A DNA stretch of 64,000 nucleotides from an uncultured Bacteroidia bacterium (lineage in GTDB: Bacteria > Bacteroidota > Bacteroidia > Bacteroidales > UBA932). The position numbers and the translations under genes were made by a program. A model generated the notes under the pieces. That model had not been told where the DNA came from. It worked only from the letters and a program-made list of their open reading frames with translations, and ran no database searches. This document shows positions 28,787 through 36,754 of this stretch, in pieces (position 1 is the first letter of the stretch; every line of letters begins with the position of its first letter). The stretch covers positions 94,743-158,742 of the forward strand of contig CACWOZ010000002.1 in assembly GCA_902762655.1 (NCBI GenBank), in the 5' to 3' direction.

Positions 28787-28942
28787 ATGACAAAACAAAA
28801 CAAATTGGGCTATTCAAGTCCTGAATGCCGGGAGGTAAGCATCTCCCCGCAGGCACAGTTGCTCCAGGTCATCAGCAATCCTGCTGTTACCTTGGATGCG
28901 TTCGGTATTTATGATGACACAACAGATCCTTATTTCGGTTGA
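28787..28942 (+). CDS. Small protein (51 aa) MTKQNKLGYSSPECREVSISPQAQLLQVISNPAVTLDAFGIYDDTTDPYFG, absent from the ORF track
   Basis: Fills the intergenic gap, has an AT-rich leader, and ends 3 nt before the next ATG; YxxP...LL...S pattern. Confidence 0.65.
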   Translation: MTKQNKLGYSSPECREVSISPQAQLLQVISNPAVTLDAFGIYDDTTDPYFG

Positions 28943-28945
28943 TTT

Positions 28946-31900
28946 ATGAAGAAGATTTTCATTCTGCTGTGCGCCTTGGCAGCCTTGGCAGCAGCATCCT
29001 GCACCGAAAAGGAAGACTTCGCTCCCGCAGGTGAGAAAGTTACCCGCGAATTCACTACCGTACTCACCAAGACGACTCTTCATACCGACGGAGCTACCGT
29101 TTACTGGGAAGAAGGGGATGCAATCAGCATCTTTGATGGTGTCGGCAATAATCAGTTTGATATTCAGGGATATGACAACGGCAGCCCTTCAGCTTCCGCA
29201 ACTTTCAGCGGTACTGTAGATGCTGGTGCTACTTCTTTCTATGCTGTGTATCCTTATTACGCTGGCAATAGTCTTGTAGGTTCTACCCTTACTGCTTCAG
29301 TTCCTGCCGCGCAGACTCTCAAGACAGGTAGTTTTCAGTCTGGGGCTGCTGTGGCCGTGGCTTATACCACTGGCAATTCTCTTGCATTCCATCAGGCTAC
29401 GGCTATCCTCGGTATCACCCTTGCTGACTACATGGACAATGTGGAGAGCATCGAGTTCAAAGGAAACAAGGACGAAGTTGTCGCCGGCAATGTCGATGTA
29501 ACATTGAATTCTTCAGGTGACATCACTTCCGTATCTCCTTCCGGAACCGACAAGACGGTTACCCTTTCCGGTACATTTACTGCTGGTGAGACTTACTACC
29601 TTTCGTTCATTCCCCAGACCTTTAGTGACGGCTTGACAGTGACTGTTACTTACGGGGGCGGTCAGACAGCGGTCGCTACCAGCAATAAGAGCCTTGCTAC
29701 CGAGCCCGGAATGAGCTATCCTATCGCAGACTTCAGCAGGGTAGAACTGCCTGTTGTCTTGTTTGACAAAAAGAATTTCAACTACGATGAGGGAACGCCT
29801 CAGACGCTTCCTGCAACCTGCAAGAATGTTACATCACTCGTTATTGACGATATTCCTGACGGCTGGACAGTTGTTTGGAATTCGGATCATTTTGATGTAA
29901 CTCCTCCAACTCTGGCAGAGATTCAGGCTACTCCGCAGACAGTAGCACCTGCGGGTGTGGTAAAAGTCACCATTAGCAACGCCAAGTACAGTGGTAAGCT
30001 GGAAATCCCCGTGAGGTTGTATGGTATCAACAGTGTGGAAGAGTTTAATGCTTTCCGCACTGCTTATGGCCCCCTTAATGATGGCATTGGTATATTTGCC
30101 GAAGGGACCTCAGGTGCTGCCCGCAAGGCTGCCGCTTTGGATTACTTTGTCGATGACGAAATCACTTTCAATACCGACATCGCTCCTGCCTCGGTTACTA
30201 ATTATTATTTCCACAACATTGAGCATAACATCAATGGTAATAACAGGACTCTGACGATTACTGTTTCAGGCAGTGCCTGGCCTATAGGTTTCTGCCAGCA
30301 AACTTACGGAAACCCTGTTGTTCACGATTTGAATCTTGCTGGTACTATTACATGGACACACGATAATGGTAGTTATTCTAGCGGAAATGCTTTAGCGGGA
30401 GGTTTCGCTGCTCAAGTTGCAGGCGGAACCCTCACTTTTACGAATGTGAACAGTTCGGTTAATATTACCTGGACTTCTTCAACAGAGGCTACTCCTAAAT
30501 CAACAGGAAAACACGTGGTAGTTGGCGGTTTGGTTGCTTTCAGCAATGGAAAAACCATTACTTATAATGATTGCGAAGTATCTGGAATTATTTCCCAGAA
30601 CACTAGGGCTTTGGGACTCGGTGGTTTCTTAGGTTGGAGTGCGGGAGCCAATAAAGCGTATTTTAATCATTGTACTTTCAGCGGTAATCTTATTAATACA
30701 GTTACAAGTGCAGATAAGTCCGCATATACTGATAATACTAATCTTGATATGATTGGTGGCTTCGTAGGAGCAAGTGATGGGAATGCTTCTGCTTTGATAC
30801 AGGTAAAAGGTAGCACTATGTCAGGCAAAATTACCATTGCCGATGGCGCGAGGATGCTTGGCGGTTTTGTCGGAAAGGCATCATGCCCTGTAGTAATTGG
30901 TGATGATGATTTAGGGAATCATAGTTCATTTGCCGGTAAGATTGACTATACCGATAACGTTGGTGTCGTGTCTTCGCCTGCATATGGGTATGTCGGAGGT
31001 TTCATTGGCAACAAGACTGCTAATACCACTTCCATCACCAATTCTGTAAGCACTGCTGAAAGCGAAGTCAAAATCTCTGGTGGCGCCCCCTGTGTCGGAG
31101 GTTTTATAGGTAAGAATGATGCTGCTTTTACTAACTTTAGTGGCAATACGTTTGGAGGAGTAGTTACTTATGCTTCTACTGGAGCCGTAGTTTCGAACAC
31201 AATTGAGAGAGTCGGTGGATTTGTTGGTCATATGGGAGGAGGTGGCTCCACTTTCTCATCTTGTCATTCAAACGGCACTGTTACGATTACCAAAGGCGCT
31301 ATTAGCGTCGGTGGTTTCTGTGGAGTAGATGCTGCAAATGATACGTTCAGTTCTTGCGATTTTGGAGGCATGCTTGATTTTACCACTTATACAACACTTC
31401 CTTCAGATAGCGATAAGGCTAACAGGTGTGGCCGTATCGGAGGTTTTGTAGGTGAAATACAGACTAATACCGTAACATTTGACAATTGTAATGTCACGAC
31501 AGATGGAAAGGTGATCAGCAAGAAAGATGTTTCCAATAGCGGAGGTTTCCTTGGAAACGGTGGTGGAACTAACTCTGGTAATACGGCCAGAGGTACTGCT
31601 AATTTCTCCAATTGTAACTTCCACGGAACCATGTCCCATGATTGGGAGGATGCGGCATCCGGTGTCGGAGCACATCGTATGGGTGGCTTTGTCGGTGATG
31701 CTTCGAGAGTCGTTTCGCTTTCATCCTGTAGTAATGATGGATCTATAGTCCTTCACGACAGAGGTAAAGGGTGGACTGCTCTTGGCGGAATCCTTGGTCG
31801 GACGACAAATGCCGCATCTGGTCATACCATGAGTTTTACTTTAACAAGTTGCTCTTTCAGTGGCACAATGATGGTTTATGCGCCTACTGCTGCTAGAGCG

Positions 31901-32062
31901 ACTTCACTTTCGAATACAACGAACATATTCGGTACACTAATCGGAGCAAATGCTGCTACAACTGCAGGTGTTTTGACGATTGATGGTGCAAACTATACCT
32001 CAGGTAAAGGTGTCAATCATAACTATGGCACTACAAGTGTCACCTTTGCCGTCGAACCGTAA
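28946..32062 (+). CDS. Fimbrillin-family lipoprotein with RLYGIN module and long Gly/Ser-rich beta-helix region
   Basis: Lipobox AASC; TKTTLHTDGATVYWEEGDAISIFD; RLYGINS at 30014; many GGF(V/I/L)G repeats. Confidence 0.72.
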   Translation: MKKIFILLCALAALAAASCTEKEDFAPAGEKVTREFTTVLTKTTLHTDGATVYWEEGDAISIFDGVGNNQFDIQGYDNGSPSASATFSGTVDAGATSFYAVYPYYAGNSLVGSTLTASVPAAQTLKTGSFQSGAAVAVAYTTGNSLAFHQATAILGITLADYMDNVESIEFKGNKDEVVAGNVDVTLNSSGDITSVSPSGTDKTVTLSGTFTAGETYYLSFIPQTFSDGLTVTVTYGGGQTAVATSNKSLATEPGMSYPIADFSRVELPVVLFDKKNFNYDEGTPQTLPATCKNVTSLVIDDIPDGWTVVWNSDHFDVTPPTLAEIQATPQTVAPAGVVKVTISNAKYSGKLEIPVRLYGINSVEEFNAFRTAYGPLNDGIGIFAEGTSGAARKAAALDYFVDDEITFNTDIAPASVTNYYFHNIEHNINGNNRTLTITVSGSAWPIGFCQQTYGNPVVHDLNLAGTITWTHDNGSYSSGNALAGGFAAQVAGGTLTFTNVNSSVNITWTSSTEATPKSTGKHVVVGGLVAFSNGKTITYNDCEVSGIISQNTRALGLGGFLGWSAGANKAYFNHCTFSGNLINTVTSADKSAYTDNTNLDMIGGFVGASDGNASALIQVKGSTMSGKITIADGARMLGGFVGKASCPVVIGDDDLGNHSSFAGKIDYTDNVGVVSSPAYGYVGGFIGNKTANTTSITNSVSTAESEVKISGGAPCVGGFIGKNDAAFTNFSGNTFGGVVTYASTGAVVSNTIERVGGFVGHMGGGGSTFSSCHSNGTVTITKGAISVGGFCGVDAANDTFSSCDFGGMLDFTTYTTLPSDSDKANRCGRIGGFVGEIQTNTVTFDNCNVTTDGKVISKKDVSNSGGFLGNGGGTNSGNTARGTANFSNCNFHGTMSHDWEDAASGVGAHRMGGFVGDASRVVSLSSCSNDGSIVLHDRGKGWTALGGILGRTTNAASGHTMSFTLTSCSFSGTMMVYAPTAARATSLSNTTNIFGTLIGANAATTAGVLTIDGANYTSGKGVNHNYGTTSVTFAVEP

Positions 32063-32085
32063 CGTCAAAGTGCAAGTCTTTTTTC

Positions 32086-32118
32086 AGCAGTGCGGCCCTC
32101 GGGCCGCACTGCTTTTTT
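32086..32118 (+). terminator. Rho-independent terminator closing the second SusCD operon
   Basis: Perfect 13-bp inverted repeat agcagtgcggccc / gggccgcactgct followed by a T run. Confidence 0.88.
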
Positions 32119-32139
32119 ATTCTTTCCTCTCATCACCCC

Positions 32140-32772
32140 ATCCACAAAACCCGCCTTTCCCGTGTCTGCCCGGCCAATCTCCGCCTTCCATCCACCGAAC
32201 CGGCCCTTCCCGTGTCTGCTCGCTGAAATCCCGCCTTCCAGCTACCAAATATGCCCTACCCTTGTCTGCGCGGCGCATTTGAGAACGGTCTCCTTTTACC
32301 TGCTGGACCTTTCCCGGTCAAATGCCATTCCACCACTTTCTATTGCCCATTCCCCGGTCAAGGTCCTCCCCTCAAAATCAGACCTTTCCCATAGCTGTTG
32401 GTCCTTCCCGTGTCTGGCTGCCAGTTTTACGCCTTCCATCCACCAAACCGCCTCTTCCTGTGTTTGTCTGCCAGTTCTCCGCCCTCCCGGCACCGAACCA
32501 TCCATCCCTGTGTCTGCCCAACGCACCATTGATTATCAGCGACTTGCGCAAACTCGTCTGGTACATTCGCACCAGACGAGTTTGCGCAAATGCTTGATCC
32601 TCAATGCACCTCCTGATCAATCCCGCCCCCACTGTCCGGAATGACGAGTTCGTAAATATTCTCTCCCTTCGCAGCCACCAATCAGCCGCTCTCCGTGTCT
32701 GCCACGCCCTAAATCCCACTGCAGACACCGAACCGCCTCTTCCCGTGTCTTCCTGGCGAAATCCCCGGCCAA
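32140..32772. repeat. Degenerate 50-bp repeat array (about 8 copies in three runs; a ninth at 33584)
   Basis: Core cccgtgtctg or a variant starts at 32159, 32209, 32259, 32407, 32457, 32507, 32692, 32742, an exact 50-bp period within each run; consensus about atccaccRaaccgccYttcccgtgtctgc...aatcYccgccttcc. Confidence 0.85.
32544..32589. repeat. Perfect 19-bp inverted repeat with 8-nt spacer
   Basis: ttgcgcaaactcgtctggt (32544-32562) and accagacgagtttgcgcaa (32571-32589). Confidence 0.9.
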
Positions 32773-32776
32773 CCCT

Positions 32777-32873
32777 TCACTTTTTTTAAGTTTCCGTATA
32801 CGCAAACTTAAATAATCGTACTTTATGGCATGTTTGCGGGGGTAAATTTACGTTTGCTTTGCATATTATTGCA
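32777..32873 (+). repeat. 97-bp promoter-bearing block, copy 1 (upstream of ORF6N)
   Basis: 90 of 97 positions match 33638-33734 by hand alignment; contains a 28-bp palindrome (32785-32812) and -7 TACGTTTG (32849-32856). Confidence 0.88.
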
Positions 32874-32955
32874 TCCATAAACGCATATCCGCCGCTTCGC
32901 AGTGATTCATAGTACGGAAAAAATGGTGAAACGAAGGATTCAAATAAACTGTGTT

Positions 32956-33540
32956 ATGGAAAATAAGTTGATCCTTGTTCAAAACCTCATCTACGAGATT
33001 CGGGGTAGGAAAGTAATGCTGGACTCAGATTTGGCGAAGTTGTATCGAATAGAGACAAAAGCGCTAAAGCAAGCTGTCCGTAGAAATCTTGAAAGATTTC
33101 CGGATGATTTTATGTTCGAACTCACCTTAGAGGAGCATAAGGCATTGATAATCAATATGAGGTCACAATTTGTGACCACAAGTAACAACCCGAACACCCA
33201 TACAAGATATGCTCCTTTTGCTTTTACAGAACAGGGGGTCGCAATGCTTTCTTCGGTTCTGAAGAGTGATATTGCAATTCAAGTCAACATTGCCATTATG
33301 CGTGCATTCGTGCAAGTACGTGAACACTTGCTGACAACGACTTCTTTATCTGCTGAACTAAAAGAACTCCGAGCCAAAGTGGACTTGATCCAATGCCAGC
33401 AAGAGGAGGACCTTGGCGCACTCAATGACTTATCTGAGGAAGTCCGCAAAGATATAGACAATCTATATGTTGCAATCGGACAGTTGGCCGCCCGCCTCGA
33501 AGAAAAAAAGAACGAGCCACGGAAACGCATTGGCTATTGA
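32956..33540 (+). CDS. ORF6N domain DNA-binding protein (phage antirepressor-like)
   Basis: IYEIRGRKVMLDSDLAKLY, ETKALKQAVRRNLERFPDDFMFELT, PFAFTEQGVAMLSSVL, C-terminal RKRIGY; start moved to the ATG at 32956. Confidence 0.92.
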   Translation: MENKLILVQNLIYEIRGRKVMLDSDLAKLYRIETKALKQAVRRNLERFPDDFMFELTLEEHKALIINMRSQFVTTSNNPNTHTRYAPFAFTEQGVAMLSSVLKSDIAIQVNIAIMRAFVQVREHLLTTTSLSAELKELRAKVDLIQCQQEEDLGALNDLSEEVRKDIDNLYVAIGQLAARLEEKKNEPRKRIGY

Positions 33541-33637
33541 TTATGCGCTCAGAGGTAAATTGTGATAATGCCCCCATATCCCCATCCACCAAACCTACCC
33601 TTCCCGTGTCTGCGCAGCGAAATCTACGGTCAGCCTG

Positions 33638-33734
33638 TCACTTTTTTAAAGTTTCCGTATACGCAAACTTAAAAAATCGTACTTTATGGCATGTTTCCGT
33701 AGGTAAATATATGTTTGCTTTGCATATTATTGCA
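33638..33734 (+). repeat. 97-bp promoter-bearing block, copy 2 (upstream of rpn), preceded by one 50-bp repeat at 33584
   Basis: See copy 1; -7 element here is TATGTTTG at 33710-33717. Confidence 0.88.
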
Positions 33735-33754
33735 GTTCCAAATATTTATGACTT

Positions 33755-34598
33755 ATGGAACAGATTTTAAAGCACAGCAAGTACATCGATCCGATGATCG
33801 ACGTTGCATTCAAGCAAATCTTCGGCAAGGAGAAGAACAAGCGCCTCATCAAAGAACTTCTGGAGAATGTTTTCCATCAGGACATCACTGAACTTGAGTT
33901 CGTGAATGTTGAGCATCCCGGAGAATCCAAGGATGACCGCAAGGCGGTTTTCGACCTGCAGTGCAACTCCAGACGGAAACTGGGACTACGATTTCAAACC
34001 CGTATTCTTTCTCGGAATACTGAATTACAAACTTGCAGAACCATCCAAAGATAACGAGGAATATCTCCACAGTTACTCTATCCGCAATGACAAGGATGGG
34101 GCGCAATTGACAGACAGTCTGCAATTCGTTTTCCTGGAACTGGCCCGGTTCAACAAGCGGCTGAAGGATTGCAACAACTTTATAGACAAGTTCTTGTATT
34201 ATTTCAAGAATCTTCCTACTTTTGTTGTGAAACCAGATACGCAGCAGGATAGTTATTTCGAGGAACTGCTTGCTGCCGCAGAATACAGTAATATGACAAA
34301 AGCAGAACGGGAAGCCTACAACAGGCGTTTGAAAATACAACGCGACAACTACGCGGCGGATGAGTTCGCTCGCAAAAAAGCTTTAAAGGAAATCGCCGAA
34401 GGGCGTGAAAAAGGCTTGGCGGAGGGCCTTGCTAAAGGCATGGAACAAGGCATGGAACAGGGCATAGAACAAGGCATGGCGCTAGGCCGATCAGAGGCAA
34501 ATCGGGATAATGCGCGTAAAATGCTTTTGGAAGGCATTCCGACTGAAGTTATCGGGCGGGTGACAGGCCTGTCGGCAGAAGAAATAGACAGTCTGTAA
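33755..34598 (+). pseudogene. Rpn / PD-(D/E)XK nuclease family 2 gene, frameshifted and internally deleted
   Basis: N-part YIDPMIDVAFKQIFG...AVFDLQC (33755 frame) shifts near 33965 into TPDGNWDYDFKPVFFLGIL...FVFLEL...EQG repeats (33906 frame). The usual IVEMQ...RxLYY segment is absent. Confidence 0.85.
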
Positions 34599-34605
34599 TG
34601 AATTT

Positions 34606-34635
34606 AGGGGTGCGGCTTTTGCTGCACCTCTTTTT
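34606..34635 (+). terminator. Rho-independent terminator after the rpn remnant
   Basis: 11-bp stem aggggtgcggc / gctgcacctct (two GU pairs), tttt loop, T run. Confidence 0.7.
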
Positions 34636-34661
34636 CACTTGCGAAAGCGGAACAAAATTCT

Positions 34662-34687
34662 TAAATTTGAAAGTATTTATACTTTCA
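34662..34687 (+). promoter_or_regulatory. Promoter (-7 TAAATTTG) overlapped by perfect palindrome TGAAAGTAT-TT-ATACTTTCA
   Basis: 9-bp arms at 34668-34676 and 34679-34687, 3 nt before the GH3 ATG. Confidence 0.6.
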
Positions 34688-34690
34688 TTT

Positions 34691-36754
34691 ATGAAACGAT
34701 TCTCTACATTGTTCCTGGCCGTTGCCGCCCTGATGCTTCCGGTAAGTGCAATCGCCACCCAGATTACGCAGAAAGACAAGGACCGCGCCGCGAAACTCGT
34801 GTCGCAGATGACCCTGGACGAAAAAATCGGTCTGATTTCGGGAAAAACGGACGGCTTCCATACCTTTGCGGTTCCCCGTCTCGGAATTCCGTCAGTTCAG
34901 ATGGCGGACGGCCCTCAGGGGGTGCGCAACGTCGGCGGCAAGAATGTACAGAGCACCTTCTACCCTTGCGGAATCTCCGCCGCGGCAAGTTGGAACCGTG
35001 ATGCGGTCCGTGAAATGGGAGCAGGCATAGGTTGTGCTGCCAGGGCACACGGTGTGCAGATTATGCTAGGTCCAGGCGTGAATATCTATCGTTCAGCCCT
35101 TTGTGGACGCAATTTCGAGTATTACGGCGAAGACCCTTATCTCGCCTCGGAAACCGCCCTCAATTACATCGAAGGTATGCAGGAGCAGGGGGTGATGGCC
35201 ACCATAAAACATTTCGCGCTCAATCAGCAGGAGTATGACCGCCACGGCGTTAGTTCCAATGCGGATGAACGTACGATGAACGAAATATACTTTACCACTT
35301 TCCGCAAAGCCGTCGAGAGGGGGAATGTCGGTGCCGTGATGACCAGCTACAACCCGGTGAACGGAGTCCATGCAGCCGAGAATGACTGGCTTATAAACGA
35401 CAACCTCCGTGCCTGGGGTTTCGAGGGCATCGTGATGAGCGACTGGGTTTCAAATTACGACCCGATCAATTTCGCCACTGTGGGCGTGGATCTTGAGATG
35501 CCACGGGCCTATGTGGCAAAGGAAGAGATGCTTAAGTCGTTGATTGCCAATGGGGTAGTGCGTGAAGCGGATCTCGATGCCAAGTGCATCCATATTCTTC
35601 AGACTCTCTCCGCATTCGGTTTCCTGGACGGAAATCTCAACGCCGATCCTTCTGCTGAAGACAAGGCTCTGTCGCAGAAACGCGCGTACGAAATCGCACT
35701 CGAAGGACCGGTGCTTCTCAAGAATGAAGACGGAATACTTCCGCTCAAACCCGGAAGGAAGAATATCCTTGCGCTTATCGGCCCCAATGCCAATGAAATA
35801 GTTTGCGGAGGCGGCTCCGGCTGGGTTAACCCGGAAGACGGCAAAGGTGTTACCCTTTATGAAGGGCTGCGTTCACTGGGAAAGAACTGGAATGTAGTGT
35901 TGCTGGGAACCCCGGACCCCGAAATCCTTAAGAAAGCCTCCGCTGTCGTGGTTTCGGTAGGATTCAACCGCGATACCGAAAAGGAAGGTGCAGACCGCCG
36001 CTACGGCTTTAGGCACAGCTATCAGAACGAACTCATCAAAACCGTGGCTTCCTACAACAAGAACGTGGTAGTAGTCGCCAATTCCGGTGGTGAATTCGAC
36101 ATCGCTCCATGGGCTGATGATGTAAAGGCTATAATTCTTGACTGGTATCCGGGACAGGAAGGCGGAAATGCCATTGCGGCTATTCTCAGTGGAAAAGCTT
36201 CTCCTTCAGGCAGGTTACCATTCACTTTCTGGGGATCACTTGACAAGAACCCGGCCCAGAAGTGGTATGCGGCTATGCCTCTCCATCCGAATGCCGACCG
36301 CGACCGTTATCCAATAGCCGAATATGGCGAAGGTGTATTTCTCGGATATCGCGGAGTGGAACGTTTCAACGTCAGCCCTCTTTATGCCTTCGGTTATGGC
36401 CTGACTTACACCACTTTCGATTATTCCGACATCCAGGCCGTGCCTGCCGGTGACGGATACGATATCACATTCATAGTCACCAATACCGGCAAGGCGGATG
36501 CCAAGGAGGTCGCCCAGGTTTATGTGGCGCCGGAGAATCCTTCCATAATACGTCCGGCAAAAGAACTGAAGGGATACGACAAGAAGCTGATAGCGAAGGG
36601 TGCGGCGGCTGAGTATACTGTTCATCTTGGCCCCGATGCTTTCAGTTACTACGATGTGGACAGTCATTCCTGGAAGGTTGACAGAGGTGAATACAGAATA
36701 CTCGTCGGCGCTTCGGCCGATGACATACGTCTCGAAGTTAAAGTAAAAATATGA
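34691..36754 (+). CDS. GH3 beta-glucosidase-like glycosidase with fibronectin III C-terminus
   Basis: ADGPQGVR, GRNFEYYGEDP, IKHFALN, IVMSDW (nucleophile), YGEGVFLGYR, FGYGLTYTTF; start set at MKRFSTLF. Confidence 0.95.
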   Translation: MKRFSTLFLAVAALMLPVSAIATQITQKDKDRAAKLVSQMTLDEKIGLISGKTDGFHTFAVPRLGIPSVQMADGPQGVRNVGGKNVQSTFYPCGISAAASWNRDAVREMGAGIGCAARAHGVQIMLGPGVNIYRSALCGRNFEYYGEDPYLASETALNYIEGMQEQGVMATIKHFALNQQEYDRHGVSSNADERTMNEIYFTTFRKAVERGNVGAVMTSYNPVNGVHAAENDWLINDNLRAWGFEGIVMSDWVSNYDPINFATVGVDLEMPRAYVAKEEMLKSLIANGVVREADLDAKCIHILQTLSAFGFLDGNLNADPSAEDKALSQKRAYEIALEGPVLLKNEDGILPLKPGRKNILALIGPNANEIVCGGGSGWVNPEDGKGVTLYEGLRSLGKNWNVVLLGTPDPEILKKASAVVVSVGFNRDTEKEGADRRYGFRHSYQNELIKTVASYNKNVVVVANSGGEFDIAPWADDVKAIILDWYPGQEGGNAIAAILSGKASPSGRLPFTFWGSLDKNPAQKWYAAMPLHPNADRDRYPIAEYGEGVFLGYRGVERFNVSPLYAFGYGLTYTTFDYSDIQAVPAGDGYDITFIVTNTGKADAKEVAQVYVAPENPSIIRPAKELKGYDKKLIAKGAAAEYTVHLGPDAFSYYDVDSHSWKVDRGEYRILVGASADDIRLEVKVKI

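Follow-up and report, generated by a model that had tools for sequence, protein, structure and literature searches.

The DNA analyzed here, hereafter called the window, is a stretch of 64,000 nucleotides from an uncultured member of the Bacteroidales. About midway along it, between a gene for an Mfa-like surface protein and a gene for a small ORF6N-domain protein, lies an intergenic segment that holds a degenerate repeat of ~50 bp, and one more copy of this repeat stands between the ORF6N gene and the next gene, rpn, which belongs to the PDDEXK_2/Rpn family. SusC/SusD-type and surface-protein genes are found upstream and a GH3 and a rhamnosidase gene downstream, so that the initial annotation, made from the letters alone, had fairly placed the repeat between the operons of two polysaccharide utilization loci (PULs). 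The array is confined to one locus, it varies in copy number and content, and its alleles are shared between species. The features of the segment are collected in Table 1.

Nine units were identified, all on the + strand: three runs (3 + 3 + 2) within 32138-32770, and one more at 33582. Within the runs the units stand head to tail at a spacing of exactly 50 bp. Tandem Repeats Finder detected a period of 50 bp over 32138-32274, with 2.8 copies, 75% matches and a score of 144, and a repeat finder reported 82-nt copies at 32138, 32188, 32386, 32436 and 32671, with spacings of 50/198/50/235. The 14-nt core CTTCCCGTGTCTGC, searched with up to 3 mismatches, was matched at 32156, 32206 and 32256, at 32404, 32454 and 32504, at 32689 and 32739, and at 33600, on the + strand only. 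Over the whole window there were 16 core matches against 6.1 expected, a number that none of 100 shuffles reached. A 25-nt degenerate pattern gave 7 matches in the window, with 0.01 expected, and an nhmmer profile built from 28 units, run on the 64-kb window and on the collected loci, found exactly nine copies in the window and none elsewhere in it. The initial annotation had described a repeat with exact 50-bp spacing in three runs and a solitary copy; this repeat is real, its copies number nine, and its positions had been given correctly to within 2-3 bases.

The + strand of 32119-32780 is rich in C and in pyrimidines, as had been noted at the outset: it contains 39.9% C and 16.6% G (25/26% in the whole window) and 65% pyrimidine, and the GC skew ranges from -0.28 to -0.50 over 32050-32800. 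The C-over-G bias is common to all modules of the segment, including the non-repeat leader and the insert gapA. The units are 63-77% alike, and in them a better-conserved part of ~32 nt alternates with a less-conserved part of ~18 nt; these 18-nt "variable" parts are homologous to one another. The array is non-coding, because each 50-bp copy shifts the reading frame and strains differ in 50-bp steps, and the early statement that it is not a protein repeat holds. An open reading frame (ORF) of 184 amino acids at 32090-32644, which automatic annotation lists on contigs identical to the window, starts within the upstream terminator and has no Pfam match, and gene callers did not report it for alleles whose copy number differs (L037-L046; loci used for comparison carry L numbers throughout). 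That this frame is open is probably a consequence of the C-rich composition.

The last copy before each of the two small genes abuts the same promoter block, as had also been recognized: the segments 32726-32873 and 33587-33734, each consisting of a unit and a promoter module, form a 148-nt direct repeat of 86% identity that brackets the ORF6N gene. The boxes named -7 in Table 1 are those that we take to be so from the Bacteroides consensus TAnnTTTG. The strict Bacteroidetes promoter expression, TTTG-N17-23-TAnnTTTG, had 0 matches in 31900-34800: -7 boxes are present there, but their spacing to the -33 element is not the typical one. Inside the array no promoter of the Bacteroidetes type was detected. 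In other strains the terminator of the left edge is found again, behind upstream genes that differ. The window holds no tRNA from which an att site could derive.

Table 1. Features of the intergenic segment and of the genes that follow it, from left to right (positions in the window unless a locus is named).
Feature	Position	Strand	Remarks
Intrinsic terminator of the Mfa-like surface-protein gene	32086-32113	+	Terminator scan; 12-bp stem with 9 GC pairs, then T6 (32113-32118); left edge of the conserved segment
Short C/T-rich leader	32119-32137	+	Longer in other alleles, ~60-65 nt (62 nt in L014)
Run 1, three units	32138-32287	+	Units at 32138, 32188, 32238
Unique insert gapA	32288-32385	+	98 nt, C/T-rich
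Run 2, three units	32386-32535	+	Units at 32386 (degenerate 5' half), 32436, 32486
Unique insert gapB	32536-32670	+	135 nt
Imperfect palindrome of gapB	32527-32606		36-nt arms, 83% complementary, no T-run
Run 3, two units	32671-32770	+	Promoter-proximal unit 32721-32770, its 3' part GTGTCTTCCTGGCGAAATCCCCGGCC nearly invariant in all alleles
Promoter module a	32781-32873	+	T7; palindrome AAGTTTCCGTATACGCAAACTT 32788-32809; -7 box TACGTTTG 32849-32856; drives ORF6N
ORF6N-domain gene	32956-33540	+	194 amino acids; Pfam E = 3e-33
Solitary ninth unit	33582-33631	+	Borders promoter module b on its 5' side
Promoter module b	33643-33754	+	T6; palindrome 33649-33670; -7 box TATGTTTG 33710-33717; 5' untranslated region (UTR) of rpn, which the module drives
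rpn (PDDEXK_2/Rpn family)	33755-34598	+	Pseudogene here; Pfam matches on both halves
rpn terminator	34606-34631		Terminator scan
GH3 gene	from 34691		Followed by rhamnosidase gene
Copies of the ~90-nt promoter module	32781-32873; 33643-33734; L029 3890-3990; L057 2270-2355

Occurrence of the unit and of the promoter module

A degenerate 27-nt pattern of the unit was scanned against 185,579 species genomes, and a degenerate unit pattern against the JGI metagenomes. The genome scan returned two true matches only, L012 (RUG257) and L013, and the metagenome scan five, L014, L017, L021, L024 and L025; all of their hosts are uncultured rumen or gut Bacteroidales. Every true match except L025 lies at one shared syntenic place, with the order metallo-beta-lactamase (MBL)-fold gene, surface-protein gene, array, rpn, GH3 and rhamnosidase. 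In L025 (78-1357) there are two tandem rpn genes, the second of which is 5'-truncated and fused directly to one unit and the first 9 nt of a second unit; this is the only site outside the syntenic locus at which the unit was found. The scan results with a single match (L011, L015, L016, L018-L020, L022, L023 and L026-L028) bore no resemblance to the region and were treated as chance, and the one match to the unit pattern among viral contigs (L018, which is L047) fell inside a coding region and was likewise set down to chance. BLASTN of 32119-32900 against the PLSDB plasmids and the GenBank phages gave no match.

The other contigs of four metagenomes that hold the strain were also searched, and none matched the units, the leader or gapA at ≥80% identity. 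Copies of the gapB hairpin, roughly 86% similar and with unrelated flanks, do occur in these metagenomes, and the gapB palindrome may be a dispersed palindromic element. At the loci of rpn and ORF6N paralogues no significant unit match was obtained (best E = 0.69, at L034). Neither the unit nor the module in its present form is found at L035, L048 and L056; L033 has a partial unit-like sequence beside its palindrome, and L034 a unit-like fragment 200 nt upstream. The window, the same-strain metagenomes, and the genome and metagenome scans thus yielded no further copies of the kind that a dispersed family, such as mycobacterial interspersed repetitive units (MIRUs), repetitive extragenic palindromes (REPs) or miniature inverted-repeat transposable elements (MITEs), would supply. 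The initial annotation had counted both uniqueness to this spot and a lack of content variation at the boundaries against its own proposal. The former is essentially what is seen (one syntenic locus and one rpn locus), and the latter is clearly not, as described below.

The ~90-nt promoter module (a T-run, the palindrome AAGTTTCCGTATACGCAAACTT and a TA(C/T)GTTTG -7 box) is common to unrelated small accessory genes, ORF6N and rpn, in different loci and genomes. At L029 and L057 it stands upstream of rpn/ORF6N paralogues without any 50-bp unit, and further copies with unrelated flanks are present on other contigs of the four metagenomes; its pattern had no match among the viral contigs. Since no other contigs match the units, whereas module copies with unrelated flanks exist, the promoter module can be regarded as a dispersed element and the 50-bp unit as locus-specific. 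To judge from its distribution, the module has the look of a portable promoter/operator serving a group of defence-type genes.

Variation between strains and species

All alleles used for comparison come from short-read metagenome assemblies of uncultured rumen or gut Bacteroidales. By the four-fold sites of the GH3 gene, the window, L037, L040 and L041 were assigned to one species (A) and L012, L013, L014 and L017 to another (B); L021 and L024 are B-like, and L065 is from a more distant species (D). An assembly artefact, which the initial annotation had named as a concern, is ruled out, the region of the window having been found at 99.85-100% identity on ten independent contigs (ENA and Logan assemblies).

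Table 2. Composition of the array in alleles at the syntenic locus.
Allele	Species	Units	Leader and inserts	ORF6N gene
L014	B	2	Long leader	Absent
L012	B	2 + 2	gapA	Absent
L017	B	3 + 1	gapA	Absent
L021/L024	B-like	2 + 1	gapA	Absent
L013	B	At least 1 + 6	gapB	Absent
L037, L040 and L041 types	A	1 + 2, plus 1 after ORF6N	Long leader, gapB	Present
Window	A	3 + 3 + 2, plus 1 after ORF6N	gapA, gapB	Present

As shown in Table 2, the number of units at orthologous loci ranges from 2 to at least 9; the count for L013 is a lower bound, its contig beginning within the array. The length of the array differs even among contigs with an identical ORF6N protein, and joints that skip or repeat ~50 bp were seen in metagenome contigs. 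The long leader, gapA and gapB each occur in both species. The long leaders of L040 (species A) and L014 (species B) are nearly identical, gapA is absent from L013, L014, L037, L040 and L041, and gapB is also carried, in part, by L065.

The genes at the boundaries vary as well. All four of the species A haplotypes that were compared carry the ORF6N cassette and species B lacks it, the surface-protein gene is replaced, and rpn may be intact, broken or deleted, which bears out the suggestion made at the outset that this is a hotspot of gene gain and loss. In L014 the promoter is a hybrid in which an ORF6N-type upstream part is fused to the rpn-type 5' UTR; such a promoter, together with the absence of ORF6N, is the expected product of a deletion by recombination between the 148-nt blocks. 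Two further candidates were set aside. An apparent deletion of ORF6N in L001 proved to be a run of 100 N bases (L001 13852-13951) in a public scaffold and not a real allele; the 148-nt duplicated block breaks short-read assemblies, the N run of L001 lying exactly there and L009 ending there too. A candidate "empty site" in run X26, where the terminator (32112) was joined to 34628, was based on 25-nt alignments in a divergent contig, and its right side alone gave no confirmation.

The four-fold sites of GH3 are 93-96% identical within species A, 90-95% within species B and 55-58% between A and B, and those of the N-terminal part of rpn are 30-53% identical between A and B. The array modules, by comparison, are overall 93-97% identical within A, 90-98% within B and 91-97% between A and B, with no species structure. 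Taken by module, the identity between A and B is 95-97% for gapA, 92-96% for unit 6 + gapB + unit 7, and 91-97% for the proximal unit with its promoter, and some A-B pairs of modules are closer than A-A or B-B pairs. Strong purifying selection as the main cause of this conservation across species was rejected, because the divergence of the modules is equal within and between species, and variation within species is not far below neutral, as strong selection would make it. On the simplest reading of these alignments, there is a shared gene pool that begins with the surface-protein gene, takes in the array and ends ~55 nt into rpn, and that appears to be exchanged repeatedly by homologous recombination between co-resident species.

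Origin and possible roles of the array

The unit falls in the 10-100-bp range of minisatellites, it is repeated head to tail in non-coding DNA between a terminator and a promoter, and its copy number is polymorphic among orthologous loci. MIRUs, an example of bacterial intergenic variable number tandem repeats (VNTRs), are tandem units of 40-100 bp between the genes of operons. The array resembles them in its ~50-bp head-to-tail non-coding unit, in a copy number that varies between strains, in a presumed origin by slippage or unequal recombination, and in that individual copies have no demonstrated function. Unlike MIRUs, which occupy dozens of loci per genome, it is found at the one syntenic locus and one rpn locus, and it has a strong C-over-G strand bias, unique inserts and alleles common to species. 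The array is thus a bacterial intergenic VNTR of the MIRU kind, single-locus and not dispersed.

We consider it probable, though far from assured, that the array is a locus-specific hypervariable minisatellite, produced by slippage or unequal recombination of the leader of the rpn cassette within a recombination hotspot. A non-coding leader piece of ~50 bp, directly upstream of the rpn promoter module, would have given rise to tandem copies, some of which were lost later, through replication slippage and unequal recombination, and the array would have been interrupted further by the two unique inserts. It would lie within a stretch of ~5 kb (surface-protein gene, array, ORF6N and the 5' end of rpn) that is swapped by homologous recombination among co-resident rumen Bacteroidales strains and species, and the units and the duplicated unit-plus-promoter block would offer passive homology for the gain and loss of cassettes. 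We infer both the slippage or unequal-crossover mechanism and this passive role as a recombination substrate. A separate function need not be assumed for the extra copies, and the promoter-proximal copy alone likely belongs to the functional upstream region of the promoter. The feature itself is ordinary in kind; its place is unusually prone to recombination.

An origin as a minisatellite agrees with what has been described for rpn genes, which are gained and lost with ragged ends and without terminal inverted repeats or target duplications, have local tandem duplications around them, and contain variable 12-bp repeats (PMC10400941). The PDDEXK_2 domain, the C-terminal helix-turn-helix (HTH), the variable 12-bp repeat, the ragged gain and loss and the tandem duplication are all found at the present locus. 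Unlike in that description, non-coding 50-bp arrays stand upstream of rpn here, most of the rpn paralogues that we examined lack an array, and the rpn gene of the window is a pseudogene.

Several findings weigh against this origin. In the 28 distinct units, CACC (positions 6-9) and CCGTGTCT (positions 23-30) are nearly invariant and the 3' third varies, and the distance from the promoter-proximal unit to the palindrome is constant in every allele; such uneven conservation and such a fixed distance could be due to a binding site and not to neutral duplication with concerted evolution. A 69-nt piece comprising a unit end and the hairpin is 94% identical in species D (L065), where the GH3 protein has 80% amino-acid identity, the four-fold sites are saturated at 0.41 and rpn is deleted; this piece reflects either another transfer or a real constraint. 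Finally, slippage is deduced from sequences that are short-read assemblies throughout.

The main rival of the minisatellite origin, which we regard as unlikely but deserving of attention, is that the units form a cis-regulatory array, whose core (CACC..N13..CCGTGTCT) would be recognized by a regulator or by a nucleoid protein; possible candidates are the DNA-binding ORF6N protein and the C-terminal HTH domain of Rpn. The array would tune or silence the toxin-gene promoter directly downstream. The uneven conservation within the unit is in its favour, as are the constant distance of the proximal unit from the T-run, palindrome and promoter together with its almost invariant 3' part, the unit-like fragments near the rpn paralogues of L033 and L034, and the putative DNA-binding domains that both adjacent genes encode. 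However, other rpn/ORF6N loci keep the promoter module without the unit (L029 and L057, and also L048, where the module is not in its present form), the number of copies is free to range as in Table 2, and the divergence of the modules within a species (3-7%) is as high as that of the GH3 four-fold sites, so that strong purifying selection is not evident. If the units were protein-binding or nuclease target sites, they would give a handle on the action of Rpn-type nucleases on DNA in vivo; otherwise the array is an ordinary minisatellite.

The strand bias could also point to a Rho-loading, Rho-utilization (rut)-like insulator, in which the C-rich, G-poor spacer would act as a back-up terminator that shields the toxin gene from read-through of the surface-protein operon. 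The composition fits that of a rut region, a C-rich, G-poor and weakly structured RNA stretch of ≥80 nt (here C 40% and G 17% across 660 nt on the transcribed-sense strand, a bias that all modules share), and the spacer is placed directly behind the terminator and ahead of the toxin-gene promoter. The support is nevertheless one of composition only, the spacer is predicted to fold well owing to the gapB palindrome, a strong intrinsic terminator already precedes the array, alleles with 2 units and a short spacer exist, and RNA contigs show no read-through into the array, a weak point given their low coverage. We consider such an insulator improbable.

A role of the units as recombination sites of a cassette system appears improbable to the same degree. 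A dedicated recombinase, or Rpn itself, would cut and join at the unit and so move ORF6N and rpn cassettes in the manner of attC sites or homing. It is at the unit that the homology between the cassettes starts, rpn was deleted independently in L025 and L065 with one breakpoint inside a unit each time, the region is exchanged between species, and Rpn proteins are recombination-promoting nucleases, which their describers speculated may drive local repeat changes (PMC10400941). As in integrons, small gene units (ORF6N and rpn) are bounded by a repeated element and vary in presence between strains. Unlike in integrons, no integrase or recombinase domain was found by Pfam among the genes within 10 kb, the cassettes have their own promoters, and the inverted repeat of the unit is not conserved, so that the units cannot be classed with attC. 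The gene-less tandem runs do not resemble leftovers of site-specific excision, cassette paralogues elsewhere lack the unit, breakpoints in units are expected by chance where the spacer upstream of rpn consists mostly of units, and the array is intact in the window although rpn is catalytically dead there.

We give marginally less credence still to a related idea, in which the units act in cis as targets or binding sites for the neighbouring recombination-promoting Rpn nuclease or for its C-terminal HTH domain. The locus would then mark itself as a hotspot of breakage and recombination, which would cause the repeat to expand, cassettes to be gained and lost, and the adjacent surface-protein gene to be exchanged between species. 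If true, a Bacteroidales Rpn protein would for the first time be assigned a natural DNA target, and also a biological role in "localised hyper-recombination".

The initial annotation had also proposed a structured RNA, and the repeats could in principle be hairpin modules of one or more structured or small RNA genes. The 672-nt spacer folds far better than shuffled sequences on both strands (z = -7.2 and -8.0), but these scores probably owe much to the long gapB palindrome. An inverted repeat, GCAGACAC...GTGTCTGC, is present in about half of the units; the others read CCATCCAC in the left arm, with no compensating change. Over the 28 distinct units no covariation supporting this hairpin was detected (75% of cells paired against 75% in shuffles; score 0.035 against 0.038), and the gapB hairpin has uncompensated mismatches in L037, L040 and L041. 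Rfam 15 gave no gathering-score match over the whole window, and at E ≤ 10 over 31900-34000 there were only chance-level matches (miRNA and Burkholderia sRNA (small RNA) models) to the terminator and the gapB hairpin. In the low-coverage contigs of two metatranscriptomes ORF6N is covered and the array is not. A 259-nt contig from run X30 (sheep gut, labelled "GENOMIC RNA-Seq RT-PCR") spans 32267-32419 at ~95% identity, from the last part of unit 3 across gapA into unit 4, and its origin from RNA or DNA is ambiguous. No canonical G-quadruplex or i-motif (four G3+ or C3+ tracts with short loops) was found, |G4Hunter| reaching 1.5 at 2 positions only with a mean of -0.62, and a G-quadruplex on the minus strand is not supported. 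A structured RNA is very unlikely on these results, and this part of the initial annotation was not upheld. Hardly to be entertained is a protein-coding sequence, for which there is the automatic call of the 184-amino-acid ORF described above, or a CRISPR-like array, which the regular period and the repeat-plus-variable layout superficially recall; unlike in CRISPR, the repeats are degenerate, the "spacers" are homologous (as the initial annotation had argued), the period is only 50 bp, and no Cas Pfam domain occurs among the genes called within 10 kb.

The main interest, then, is the locus more than the repeat itself: a small PUL hotspot in which species share non-coding DNA and gene cassettes. 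Surface-protein, ORF6N and rpn defence genes are swapped, broken or lost there, and its non-coding DNA is common to species with saturated neutral sites. The array could serve as a strain marker (VNTR) for this uncultured rumen Bacteroidales lineage.

Neighbouring genes

The rpn gene of the window has the features of the Rpn family of toxin-antitoxin (defence) genes: PF12784 (PDDEXK_2), a C-terminal HTH (RpnS region) and a variable four-amino-acid repeat. PF27070 is listed on rpn products as well, the match being weak on most. Compared with the intact allele of the same species (L041, 316 amino acids), the gene lacks 104 nt at a junction near 33971-33974. The missing DNA encodes QIGDFIVEVQVK..., including the catalytic EVQVK of the PD-(D/E)XK motif, and the frame is shifted, so that the (D/E)XK residues are wanting in the window. 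Intact copies were seen in L012, L013, L014 and L041; the window and L040 have broken ones, and L065 has lost nearly all of the gene. A 12-bp tandem repeat at 34435-34479, AAGGCATGGAAC in 3.8 copies (Tandem Repeats Finder), encodes KGME/QGME in the C-terminal region of Rpn. It differs between alleles, with KGME/KGIE in 3-5 copies, 12 additional bases in run X20 and 5 copies of KGIE in L014, in agreement with the variable four-amino-acid repeat described for RpnS antitoxins (PMC10400941).

At L065 (1790-2060) a melibiase gene precedes GH3, and what separates the two is a unit remnant, the hairpin and no more of rpn than its last ~60 nt. One breakpoint of the rpn deletion is within a unit. A short duplicated GTGCAGAAG stands at the junction, and because of this duplication a microhomology-mediated deletion is suggested.

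Upstream of the array, a 51-amino-acid ORF (28787-28942) directly before the surface-protein gene was called on nine of ten related contigs and has no Pfam match. The Mfa-like surface-protein gene itself (28946-32062) is mosaic in structure: L012 of species B matches its first ~1 kb at 97.7% identity, and the following ~2 kb is non-homologous to other alleles. Strains with an identical ORF6N carry different genes at this place, which encode surface proteins of 997 to 1177 amino acids or a remnant of 199 amino acids. By these comparisons the variation of the surface-protein gene appears to be allelic replacement inside a PUL.

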